A stretch of DNA of 4,434 nt from IMG/VR virus record IMGVR_UViG_2541047689_000001. The stretch is one strand, 5' to 3'. This DNA is from a virus (lineage: Duplodnaviria > Heunggongvirae > Uroviricota > Caudoviricetes). The notes beneath the pieces were generated by a model. It made no database searches, was not told the DNA's origin, and worked only from the letters and a program-made list of their open reading frames with translations. Positions 2,157 through 4,434 of the stretch are shown one piece after another (position 1 is the first letter of the stretch; each line of letters begins with the position of its first letter). The position numbers were made by a program, and so were the translations under genes.

Positions 2157-2695
2157 AAACGGGGGCTGAAGCCATCCGGGCGCTGGCCACACAGCTCCCG
2201 GCGTTTCGTCAGAAACTGAGCGACGGCTGGTATCAGGTACGGATTGCCGGGCGTGATACAGGTGAAACGGAATTATCAGCCCGTCTTAATGAACCGCTGG
2301 CAAATGGTGCTGTGATCCATATCGTGCCGCGTCTGGCAGGAGCCAAAAGTGGCGGTGTGTTTCAGGCTGTGCTGGGGGCGGCTGTTATGGCGGTTGCTAT
2401 ATGGATGCCGGGGGTAGGAATTATGGCGAGTAATCTGCTGTTTTCTCTCGGTGCCAGTATGACGCTTGGCGGTGTTGCACAGATGCTGGCCCCTAAACCC
2501 AGAACCCCCCGCACACAGACAACGGATAACGGCAAACAGAACACCTATTTTTCTTCACTGGATAATATGGTTGCCCAGGGCAATGTTCTGCCCGTTCTGT
2601 ACGGTGAAATGCGCGTGGGATCACGTGTGGTATCTCAGGAGATCAGCACAGCAGATGAAGGTGATGGTGGTCAGGTTGTGGTGATTGGTCGCTGA
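2054..2695 (+). CDS. I: Tail assembly protein I (213 aa): N-terminal ubiquitin-like region ending in Gly-Gly, a hydrophobic middle segment and a C-terminal domain
   Basis: Complete ORF with ATG at 2054 and TGA at 2693-2695. The translation (MAATHTLPLASPGMARICLYGDLQRFGRRIDLRVKTGAEAIRALA ... ; C-terminus NGKQNTYFSSLDNMVAQGNVLPVLYGEMRVGSRVVSQEISTADEGDGGQVVVIGR) is recognised as lambda gpI-like. It starts inside the 3' end of K in a different frame, with a 103-nt overlap. An AGAGG Shine-Dalgarno-like sequence sits at 2038-2042. Confidence 0.9.
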   Translation: MAATHTLPLASPGMARICLYGDLQRFGRRIDLRVKTGAEAIRALATQLPAFRQKLSDGWYQVRIAGRDTGETELSARLNEPLANGAVIHIVPRLAGAKSGGVFQAVLGAAVMAVAIWMPGVGIMASNLLFSLGASMTLGGVAQMLAPKPRTPRTQTTDNGKQNTYFSSLDNMVAQGNVLPVLYGEMRVGSRVVSQEISTADEGDGGQVVVIGR

Positions 2696-2713
2696 TGAAA
2701 AACGTTTTATGTG

Positions 2714-2740
2714 AAACCGCCTCCGGGCGGTTTTATCGTT
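2714..2740 (+). terminator. GC-rich hairpin followed by a U-rich tract in the I-J intergenic gap; possible weak intrinsic terminator or RNA stability/processing element
   Basis: A perfect 8-bp inverted repeat is seen: AAACCGCC (2714-2721), loop TCCG (2722-2725), GGCGGTTT (2726-2733), followed by TATCGTTTAT. The T-run is interrupted, so terminator strength is doubtful. Confidence 0.3.
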
Positions 2741-2743
2741 TAT

Positions 2744-2747
2744 GGAG
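2744..2747 (+). promoter_or_regulatory. Shine-Dalgarno (GGAG) for J, 8 nt upstream of ATG 2756
   Basis: GGAG is seen at 2744-2747 in TATGGAGCATGACGAATGGGT. Confidence 0.55.
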
Positions 2748-2755
2748 CATGACGA

Positions 2756-4434
2756 ATGGGTAAAGGCAGCAGTAAGGGGCATACCCCGCGCGAAGCGAAG
2801 GACAACCTGAAGTCCACGCAGATGCTGAGCGTGATAGACGCCATCAGTGAAGGGCCGGTTGAAGGTCCGGTGGATGGATTAAAAAGCGTGCTGCTGAACA
2901 GTACGCCAGTGCTGGACAGTGAGGGGAATACCAATATCTCCGGTGTCACGGTGGTTTTCCGGGCAGGTGAGCAGGAGCAGACACCGCCGGAGGGATTTGA
3001 ATCCTCCGGCTCCGAGACGGTGCTGGGTACGGAAGTGAAGTACGACACGCCGATTACCCGGACCATCACGTCTGCAAACATCGACCGTCTGCGCTTTACC
3101 TTCGGTGTACAGGCACTGGTGGAAACCACCTCAAAGGGGGACCGGAATCCGTCGGAAGTCCGCCTGCTGGTTCAGATACAGCGTAACGGTGGCTGGGTGA
3201 CGGAAAAAGACATCACCATTAAGGGCAAAACCACCTCGCAGTATCTGGCCTCGGTGGTGGTGGATAACCTGCCGCCGCGCCCGTTTAATATCCGGATGCG
3301 CAGGATGACGCCGGACAGCACCACAGACCAGCTGCAGAACAAAACGCTCTGGTCGTCATACACCGAAATCATCGATGTGAAACAGTGCTACCCGAACACG
3401 GCACTGGTCGGCGTGCAGGTGGACTCGGAACAGTTCGGCAGTCAGCAGGTGAGCCGTAATTATCATCTTCGCGGGCGCATTCTGCAGGTGCCGTCGAACT
3501 ATAACCCGCAGACGCGGCAATACAGCGGTATCTGGGACGGAACGTTTAAGCCGGCATACAGCAACAACATGGCCTGGTGTCTGTGGGATATGCTGACCCA
3601 TCCGCGCTACGGCATGGGGAAACGTCTTGGTGCGGCGGATGTGGATAAATGGGCGCTGTATGTCATCGGCCAGTACTGCGACCAGTCGGTGCCGGACGGC
3701 TTTGGCGGCACGGAGCCGCGCATCACCTGTAATGCCTGGCTGACCACGCAGCGTAAGGCGTGGGATGTGCTCAGTGATTTCTGCTCGGCGATGCGCTGTA
3801 TGCCGGTATGGAACGGGCAGACGCTGACGTTCGTGCAGGACCGACCATCAGATAAGGTGTGGACCTATAACCGCAGTAATGTGGTGATGCCGGATGATGG
3901 CGCGCCGTTCCGCTACAGCTTCAGCGCCCTGAAGGACCGCCATAATGCCGTTGAGGTGAACTGGATTGACCCGGATAACGGCTGGGAGACGGCGACAGAG
4001 CTCGTGGAGGATACGCAGGCCATTGCCCGTTACGGCCGTAACGTCACGAAGATGGATGCCTTTGGCTGTACCAGCCGGGGGCAGGCACACCGCGCCGGGC
4101 TGTGGCTGATTAAAACGGAGCTGCTGGAAACGCAGACCGTGGACTTCAGCGTGGGTGCTGAAGGGCTTCGCCATGTACCGGGGGATGTCATTGAAATCTG
4201 CGATGATGACTATGCCGGTATCAGCACCGGTGGTCGTGTGCTGGCGGTGAACAGCCAGACCCGGACGCTGACGCTCGACCGTGAAATCACGCTGCCATCC
4301 TCCGGTACCACGCTGATAAGCCTGGTTGACGGAAGTGGTAATCCGGTCAGCGTGGAGGTTCAGTCCGTCACCGACGGACTTAAGGTGAAAGTGAATCGGG
4401 TTCCTGACGGCGTTGCAGAATACAGTGTGTGGGG
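2756..4434 (+). CDS. J: Tail tip / central tail fibre host-specificity protein J, N-terminal ~559 codons; 3' end lies beyond the window
   Basis: ATG at 2756 and the frame stays open to the window edge (last full codon ends at 4432). The translation (MGKGSSKGHTPREAKDNLKSTQMLSVIDAISEGPVEGPVDGLKSVLLNSTPVLDSEGNTNISGVTVVFRAGEQEQTPPEGFESSG ...) is recognised as the lambda gpJ N-terminal region. It is missing from the ORF track because it has no stop in the window. Confidence 0.93.
   Translation, partial: MGKGSSKGHTPREAKDNLKSTQMLSVIDAISEGPVEGPVDGLKSVLLNSTPVLDSEGNTNISGVTVVFRAGEQEQTPPEGFESSGSETVLGTEVKYDTPITRTITSANIDRLRFTFGVQALVETTSKGDRNPSEVRLLVQIQRNGGWVTEKDITIKGKTTSQYLASVVVDNLPPRPFNIRMRRMTPDSTTDQLQNKTLWSSYTEIIDVKQCYPNTALVGVQVDSEQFGSQQVSRNYHLRGRILQVPSNYNPQTRQYSGIWDGTFKPAYSNNMAWCLWDMLTHPRYGMGKRLGAADVDKWALYVIGQYCDQSVPDGFGGTEPRITCNAWLTTQRKAWDVLSDFCSAMRCMPVWNGQTLTFVQDRPSDKVWTYNRSNVVMPDDGAPFRYSFSALKDRHNAVEVNWIDPDNGWETATELVEDTQAIARYGRNVTKMDAFGCTSRGQAHRAGLWLIKTELLETQTVDFSVGAEGLRHVPGDVIEICDDDYAGISTGGRVLAVNSQTRTLTLDREITLPSSGTTLISLVDGSGNPVSVEVQSVTDGLKVKVNRVPDGVAEYSVW

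Follow-up and report, generated by a model that had tools for sequence, protein, structure and literature searches.

The locus analyzed here raises the question of why a compact phage tail operon holds one open gap, directly ahead of the tip attachment gene J, and what the RNA hairpin in that gap does. The window (the whole stretch of 4,434 nt that was analyzed) is a lambda-type tail-tip module, comprising the end of H, the tail genes M (381–710), L (710–1408) and K (about 1413–2156), the tail assembly gene I, and the first 559 codons of J, which extends past the window end. Gene I (Pfam Lambda_tail_I) occupies an open reading frame at 2054–2695 on the plus strand and closes with a TGA codon at 2693–2695. 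The ATG of J (MGKGSSKG..., Pfam FNIII-A_GpJ and Phage-tail_3) follows on the same strand at 2756–2758. The I-J gap thus spans 2696–2755, that is, the 60 nt given in an earlier, sequence-only reading of this DNA. This reading had also singled out the gap as the sole real one of the module, and the layout agrees with it: stop and start codons overlap at the H/M and M/L junctions, L and K are separated by 5 nt, and K and I overlap by 103 nt. The arrangement is common. The region 2400–3050 of the window is 92–97% identical to about a hundred lambda-like coliphages, and the 141 nt around the I-J junction show 100% identity to several Escherichia coli chromosomes, with 8620 sites in 4278 of the 5426 complete E. 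coli genomes.

All parts of the gap element lie on the plus strand. An A/U-rich spacer of 15 nt (2696–2710) leads from the I stop codon to the extended stem at 2711–2736, and the distance to the 8-bp core is 18 nt. As identified by inverted-repeat search, the core is formed by the 5′ arm AAACCGCC (2714–2721) and the 3′ arm GGCGGTTT (2726–2733), which enclose the loop UCCG (2722–2725), a UNCG-type tetraloop with a C-G closing pair. This is the single inverted repeat within 2600–2850, and its arms are 100% complementary and 4 nt apart, which bears out the perfect 8-bp stem and 4-nt loop reported before. Five of the eight pairs are G-C, and the stem can be extended to 11 bp with G-U and A-U pairs. 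On its 3′ side, the stem is followed by UUUUAUCGUUUAU and then by the ribosome-binding site of J. The U-rich tract TTTTATCGTTTAT occupies 2731–2743, and its first three Ts double as the A-U base of the stem; directly past the G+C core (CCGCC/GGCGG), five of eight bases are T. The earlier description of this tract as U-rich but interrupted is accurate (TTTT ATCG TTTAT after the stem). In the window the tract is broken up (UUUUAUCG) and three of its Us pair with an upstream AAA, so the signal is moderate. Finally, the Shine-Dalgarno sequence of J, GGAG (2744–2747), begins 10 nt past the 3′ arm, as had been stated, and 8 nt before the ATG.

The estimate of folding energy that had been proposed as a check yielded a stable hairpin, with −13.2 kcal/mol (z = −4.2) for the 8-bp core. 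The extended stem at 2711–2736 folds at −16.9 kcal/mol (z = −5.6), a value reached by none of 200 shuffles, and the entire 60-nt gap folds at −20.9 kcal/mol (z = −3.3). The opposite strand folds less well (−11.3 kcal/mol) and has no T-run. In dinucleotide shuffles of the 4434-nt window, perfect hairpins with stems of 8 bp or more and loops of 3–8 nt occur at a rate of 0.44 per shuffle, and about 0.006 are expected in a given 60 nt. Collectively, these values show a defined and non-random structure in the gap. The window contains only one other perfect 8-bp hairpin, which has a 3-nt loop and lies inside J (4362–4380, plus strand); it may be due to chance, given the expectation of about 0.44 per window shuffle. 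Weak terminator-like sites with stems of 6–7 bp are found inside L and at the L/K border (1023–1039 and 1360–1376 on the plus strand; 844–860 on the minus strand). Lambda has them too, and their number equals the shuffle expectation. A simple terminator scan of the window does not list the I-J hairpin, since the scan extends the stem to its maximum and thereby consumes the first Ts of the tail; a second scan, in which terminal A-U pairs are trimmed, finds it. At a permissive E-value, a scan of 2500–2950 against Rfam 15 brings no family to its gathering threshold; the best matches score 13–19 bits against thresholds of 40–56 and all cover the bare hairpin only.

The hairpin is not peculiar to this phage. 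Phage lambda (NC_001416) carries the same I-J hairpin at 15460–15485, also delimited as 15463–15482, with the loop TGCG, and phage 434 carries it with the loop of the window. Position, stem and flanks are the same in all three, and the window holds another copy: it differs from 434 at three bases only, two in the spacer and one past the T-run, and from lambda additionally at the N position of the loop. In the curated 434 record OL657226.1, 15466–15485 is annotated as a 'terminator', and further terminators are placed after D, J, a lom-like gene and the tail fibre assembly gene; the label of the I-J site carries no experimental qualifier and is taken to be a prediction. The window hairpin is thus the already annotated I-J terminator hairpin of lambda and 434. 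No 3′-end or terminator mapping for the I-J site was found in the searchable literature.

Furthermore, the I-J hairpin has counterparts along the lambda late operon. Each of the gaps longer than 40 nt (D-E, E-FI, I-J, J-lom and lom-stf) harbors a hairpin on the sense strand with Ts behind it, the hairpins other than that of I-J lying at 6097–6118, 7163–7180, 18920–18935 and 19612–19633 of NC_001416, respectively. The remaining junctions are all 15 nt or shorter, and it seems that late-operon gaps exist wherever such hairpins are housed. The hairpins behind D, E, J and lom share the build of the I-J element, namely a short spacer after the stop codon, a G+C-rich hairpin and a T-run, whereas their sequences are unrelated to it. 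They begin 16–26 nt after the stop codon (2 nt after E), and the next start codon follows 16–29 nt on. They also differ in their neighbors: the genes ahead of the D and E hairpins have very abundant products, and a gene known to be expressed in lysogens lies between the J and lom hairpins, whereas what precedes the I-J hairpin is an assembly gene of low copy, without cargo in the window.

A comparable element has been described in the P22-like phage L, where a predicted Rho-independent terminator lies inside a single-promoter late operon that is transcribed by antiterminated polymerase. Its authors noted that such terminators within an operon are no isolated case and that what they do is unknown, and they considered partial termination or the stopping of spurious transcripts (bioRxiv 10.1101/2020.10.05.325894). 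Phage L belongs to another phage group, its terminator is at another junction (the end of the procapsid module), and that paper holds no comparative or covariation analysis. The I-J hairpin has a place in a recognized class, that of the intra-operon terminators of lambdoid late operons.

To follow the element beyond close relatives, we set up a survey in which J N-terminal queries were compared with GTDB genomes and IMG/VR, and the J start and the upstream open reading frame were located in 306 loci. The resulting set contains 145 unique I-J junctions with J identity down to 33%, and these junctions are phylogenetically non-independent. Some contigs that are short and of low coverage carry a lambda-identical I-J junction with about 98% J identity (L086, L088, L090–L101, L106, L112 and others) under assembly labels such as Streptomyces, Paenibacillus, Bradyrhizobium, Shewanella and Bacillota MAGs; they are most likely lambda DNA contamination or spike-in.

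In this set, a detector for a hairpin plus T-run was positive in 86 of the 90 gaps of 36–80 nt, and in 75 of the 90 at dG ≤ −8. With the same detector, none of the 39 gaps of 20 nt or less was positive at dG ≤ −8, and the rest of the same loci gave 54 sites in 469 kb, a background of about 0.01 per 90 nt. When the T criterion was dropped, a hairpin at dG ≤ −8 was present in 72 of 80 gaps of 36–80 nt. The median folding z of the gaps was −2.44, compared with +0.21 in coding controls. In the relatives, the median spacing is 17 nt from stop to stem and 19 nt from stem to ATG. The stems themselves are diverse, as about 40 different ones occupy the I-J position in loci from Escherichia, Edwardsiella, Budvicia, Limnobaculum, Providencia-type, Pasteurellaceae and Ignatzschineria sources. 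Among the distinct 4-nt loops, 14 of 21 are UNCG or GNRA, and where the loop is polymorphic (C/G/U/A), in the lineage of the window and in Edwardsiella, the variable base is the N of UNCG. In many distant lineages, I and J overlap or stand close together, and the hairpin is absent.

Among close relatives, about 66 IMG/VR loci with a gap of 59–60 nt have an invariant stem, and variation is found in the loop, in the spacer and past the T-run. The second base of the loop is C or G in these loci; the loop variants seen in relatives are UGCG, UUCG and UACG, again with the polymorphism on the N of UNCG.

Across the wider set, the roughly 40 differing stems keep their pairing, which supports the proposal that the stem is conserved with compensatory changes. 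RNAalifold, applied to a MAFFT alignment anchored at the J start only, arrived at the same 8 pairs, and compensatory double changes affect 3 of these. Because MAFFT misregistered rows of differing loop length, pairs were counted on a gap-free set of 4-nt loops. In this loop-anchored alignment of 15 sequences, 93% of the cells are paired and 4 of the 8 pairs have changed on both sides; the covariation score is 0.576 compared with 0.200 in shuffles, and 0 of 500 shuffles reach it, on an alignment that is itself fitted to the structure. Part of the stem diversity could come from recombination and not from compensatory mutation. Collectively, the structure has been conserved through compensatory change.

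At least 5 Ts in the next 8 nt follow every one of the 72 stable gap hairpins, compared with 3.8% of 994 background hairpins, and an upstream A-run accompanies only 3% of the gap hairpins, so the signal is one-directional and lies on the strand of late transcription. A bidirectional terminator was considered and rejected on these grounds, as the opposite strand of the window folds worse and the A-run is found in just 3% of relatives. The sequence-only reading had set termination aside, which was too hasty in view of a T-run at all stable gap hairpins on the late-transcription strand only. The window element combines a G+C-rich stem and short loop with an adjacent U-run, in sense orientation behind the I stop; a stable stem that folds fast, an adjacent U-tract, sense polarity and a post-stop position together make the architecture of an intrinsic terminator.

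In lambda, the polymerase of late transcription is modified by Q and ignores terminators, and the late operon is the textbook example of a single promoter with a single antiterminator and a single RNA of 26 kb. On this established knowledge of Q, the late antiterminated polymerase probably does not stop at the hairpin, and since Q-modified polymerase ignores terminators, the element would act on unmodified polymerase. The reading that we favor, with somewhat better than even confidence, is that the hairpin is a Rho-independent, intrinsic terminator: polymerase without the late antiterminator would be stopped there, which would insulate J and bring transcripts of cargo to an end, and antiterminated polymerase would read through. 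Termination itself, its efficiency, the antiterminated read-through and the benefit of insulating J are what we infer. The copy in the window may be a weak terminator, judging from its interrupted U-tract with three Us in the stem.

The sequence-only reading had suggested a stability or processing element or a tuning of J translation. Both are possible and less supported than termination; a role in stability leaves the universal U-tract unexplained, and tuning finds support only in the lineage of the window. As a stabilizer or processing element within the read-through late RNA, the hairpin could act in two modes. After a downstream endonuclease cut, it could block 3′-to-5′ exonucleases and protect the H-M-L-K-I segment; alternatively, a cut in the A/U-rich spacer could leave a protective 5′ stem on the 3.4-kb J message. 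The stability of the hairpin, its extra-stable tetraloop and the conservation of structure rather than sequence are consistent with such a role. The lambda hairpins behind the abundant head genes D and E also fit segmental stability, and published work links terminators to greater stability of upstream mRNA (PMC11696848). Given antitermination, a stabilizing or processing role would also be the sole action open to the hairpin during lytic growth. However, a stabilizer needs no U-tract, and yet all 72 stable gap hairpins have one against the background of 3.8%, in the sense orientation only. In addition, the hairpin is missing in sodC variants and at compact junctions. The stoichiometry of the lambda tail bears on this as well: the products of M, L, K and I are not high-copy, which leaves no obvious need for stabilization. 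REP elements, the stable stem-loops between cistrons of polycistronic E. coli RNA, resemble the I-J hairpin in being intercistronic; unlike it, they have no adjacent U-tract and follow their own consensus sequence. We consider a stabilizing or processing role unlikely.

Control of J translation was weighed on the pairing around the ribosome-binding site. The minimum-energy fold pairs GUUUUAU with AUGGAGC, forming a weak lower stem (2704–2710/2742–2748) that would hide the Shine-Dalgarno sequence of J; a ribosome ending I would free it and thereby tie J to I translation, or the occlusion would set a low level of J. In the lineage of the window, the mean unpaired probability of the Shine-Dalgarno region is 0.31, which amounts to predicted occlusion, and the variant with lipoprotein cargo, with a different upstream sequence, is still able to pair with it. 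The spacing from the I stop to the stem, with its median of 17 nt, is about one ribosome footprint. In contrast, the lower stem contains three G-U pairs and is absent from the centroid structure of the gap, and in other lineages the Shine-Dalgarno region is about half or more unpaired (0.45–0.86). Moreover, the flanking pair 2703/2749 shows all four combinations, with a C/A mismatch in the window and no consistent covariation. Relatives without any hairpin must still express J, and the universal U-tract beside the stem again has no explanation under translational control, which we regard as improbable.

Two further candidates for a product of the gap were examined. A 22-codon open reading frame (2695–2763, plus strand; MKNVLCETASGRFYRLWSMTNG) could link I and J by translation, as the I stop (TGATG) shares bases with its ATG and the J start with its TAA, and its frame is kept in lambda. 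However, nearly every change in close relatives is non-synonymous, two variants whose gap is 59 nt long are frameshifted and end early, and the gaps of distant relatives differ in length and sequence, where the frame is absent. As a gene it was rejected, and the likelihood that it serves as a translational link is close to nil. An Hfq-bound small RNA that ends at the I-J hairpin was likewise set aside. The lambda RIL-seq study identified three small RNAs only, namely PreS at tL2a, and LPR2 and 6S RNA in the late operon; it places none at the I-J hairpin, which is weak negative evidence.

Two junction types besides the plain gap occur among close relatives. In the first (L062, L066, L068, L071–L074, L081 and L082), an AT-rich insert of 480 nt carries a plus-strand gene for a predicted lipoprotein of 112 aa (MNKTILFCTIIALTGC...) without a Pfam match. 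Behind the insert stands a homologous hairpin, AGCCGCC/GGCGGCT, with G-C in place of an A-U pair, and next comes the same TTTATGGAG-ATG. This cargo adjoins J, the receptor-binding gene, and a receptor-blocking exclusion lipoprotein would be plausible there. In the second type (L012, L030, L031, L107 and L110), an insert of about 700 nt carries sodC (PF00080, a periplasmic Cu/Zn superoxide dismutase) on the minus strand; the I stop is directly followed by a different hairpin, and J has none ahead of it. In L108 and L109, the sodC arrangement seems to survive as a remnant of 336 nt. Just past the I stop, the length of a C-run in the 3′ region of sodC, which encodes the Gly-rich C-terminus on the other strand, varies between L012 on the one hand and L030 and L031 on the other, and L030 is 3 nt longer than L012. 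As the sodC relatives and those with compact junctions do without the hairpin, the element is dispensable. Judged by sequence comparison, the I-J hairpin is common and selected, not obligatory.

Foreign DNA and recombination joints are found immediately 5′ of the hairpin, and the block from the hairpin through the Shine-Dalgarno sequence to J is intact. In the Pasteurellaceae-type loci L271 and L281, AT-rich inserts lie just 5′ of the hairpin. In L210 and L173, two different IS-like elements reach to within a few bases of the hairpin's 5′ foot, about 30–45 nt before J; both loci lack the I gene, and the hairpin is where homology to cargo-free relatives sets in. Insertions may be drawn to the hairpin, or they may persist only where they spare it. 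KilA-N or Bro-N genes lie upstream in L122, L283 and L287, where the I gene is undetectable. The long gap of L119 and L120 was rejected as cargo, as the I gene lies inside the apparent gap. Most relatives were collected via J, and the impression that the hairpin stays with J is partly an effect of this sampling. Within the Pasteurellaceae type, L282, L285 and L286 share with L283 and L287 an identical 3′ half of the hairpin and downstream sequence, whereas the 5′ arm differs: the former, with I present, have a weaker hybrid stem, and the latter, with Bro-N upstream, have a perfect 10-bp stem. On its face, this difference looks like a recombination joint within the hairpin.

These junctions recall morons, which bring their own promoter and terminator and can thus be expressed from repressed prophages (PMC3594210). 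Compared with moron cassettes such as those of HK97 and HK022 and lambda lom, the I-J hairpin sits where the downstream terminator of a moron would, and it is homologous to the hairpin behind the lipoprotein cargo in L062, L066 and related loci. In contrast, the 60-nt gap of the window holds neither a credible gene nor a promoter-like site; without cargo and without a gap promoter, the window represents at most an empty slot and no moron. The hairpin could be an evolutionary leftover, that is, the terminator of a deleted I-J cargo gene that no longer has a function in this phage. The use of I-J as a recurrent slot for foreign DNA, the homologous hairpin at the same place in lipoprotein-cargo relatives and the dispensability of the element in some relatives all fit this explanation. 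However, most junctions of several distant lineages, by a wide margin, carry no cargo, and these have kept pairing, U-tract and stable tetraloops through sequence change. The invariance of the stem among the roughly 66 close relatives, with variable loop and flanks, also speaks against it. In L131 and L135, two degenerate prophages with a broken I, the stem is weakened or the T-run lost; such decay is expected if intact phages are under selection, and it was seen in these two cases only. A functionless leftover is accordingly an improbable explanation.

Under the terminator reading, the RNA emerging from 2711–2743 would fold into a stem of 8–11 bp with a G+C core, a UNCG tetraloop and a following U-tract, and an ordinary elongation complex would be released. 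During lytic growth, polymerase modified by the antiterminator (Q in lambda) would ignore this signal, and J would be made from the same long RNA. The targets would be polymerases that do not come from the late promoter, such as those producing moron or IS transcripts in the I-J slot or starting spuriously in the prophage, and the hairpin would keep such transcripts out of J and the genes beyond, in line with one of the two roles put forward for the terminator of phage L. Promoter-like sites upstream of the gap in the window occur at chance level (2 found, 1.8 expected), with none in the gap itself, and hence this phage offers no identified transcript that needs stopping. Translation may add a further layer. 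The stem starts 15–18 nt past the I stop, and a ribosome terminating on I may partly suppress the hairpin. In published work on the terminator tR2, a terminating ribosome represses termination at short distance, with efficiencies of 0.12 and 0.8 for two constructs at 17–18 nt. Taken with the position of the I stop, these data suggest that I translation may modulate the element.

A bolder version of the terminator reading can be formulated, which we put forward as speculation and think unlikely to hold. The block of hairpin, U-tract and ribosome-binding site would be a conserved gate that belongs to J and not to I, a translation-sensitive terminator that passes antiterminated or ribosome-trailed polymerase and aborts all others; it would keep J silent in lysogens and provide a safe docking site for cargo and IS elements. 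If this were true, intra-operon terminators would be an organizing principle for the sites at which morons accumulate in lambdoid genomes.

Collectively, the survey indicates that the hairpin before J is no accident, as pairing, U-tract, tetraloop type and spacing are kept down to about one third J identity. The element itself was already known, and what is added here is comparative evidence for selection on a terminator architecture and for a role as the boundary of a cargo slot. For annotation, the result favors the label terminator over a new kind of regulatory RNA, and it turns a vague annotation into a question that is directly testable in lambda. The survey also suggests a reason for the clustering of cargo genes at certain junctions in the tail operons of prophages.
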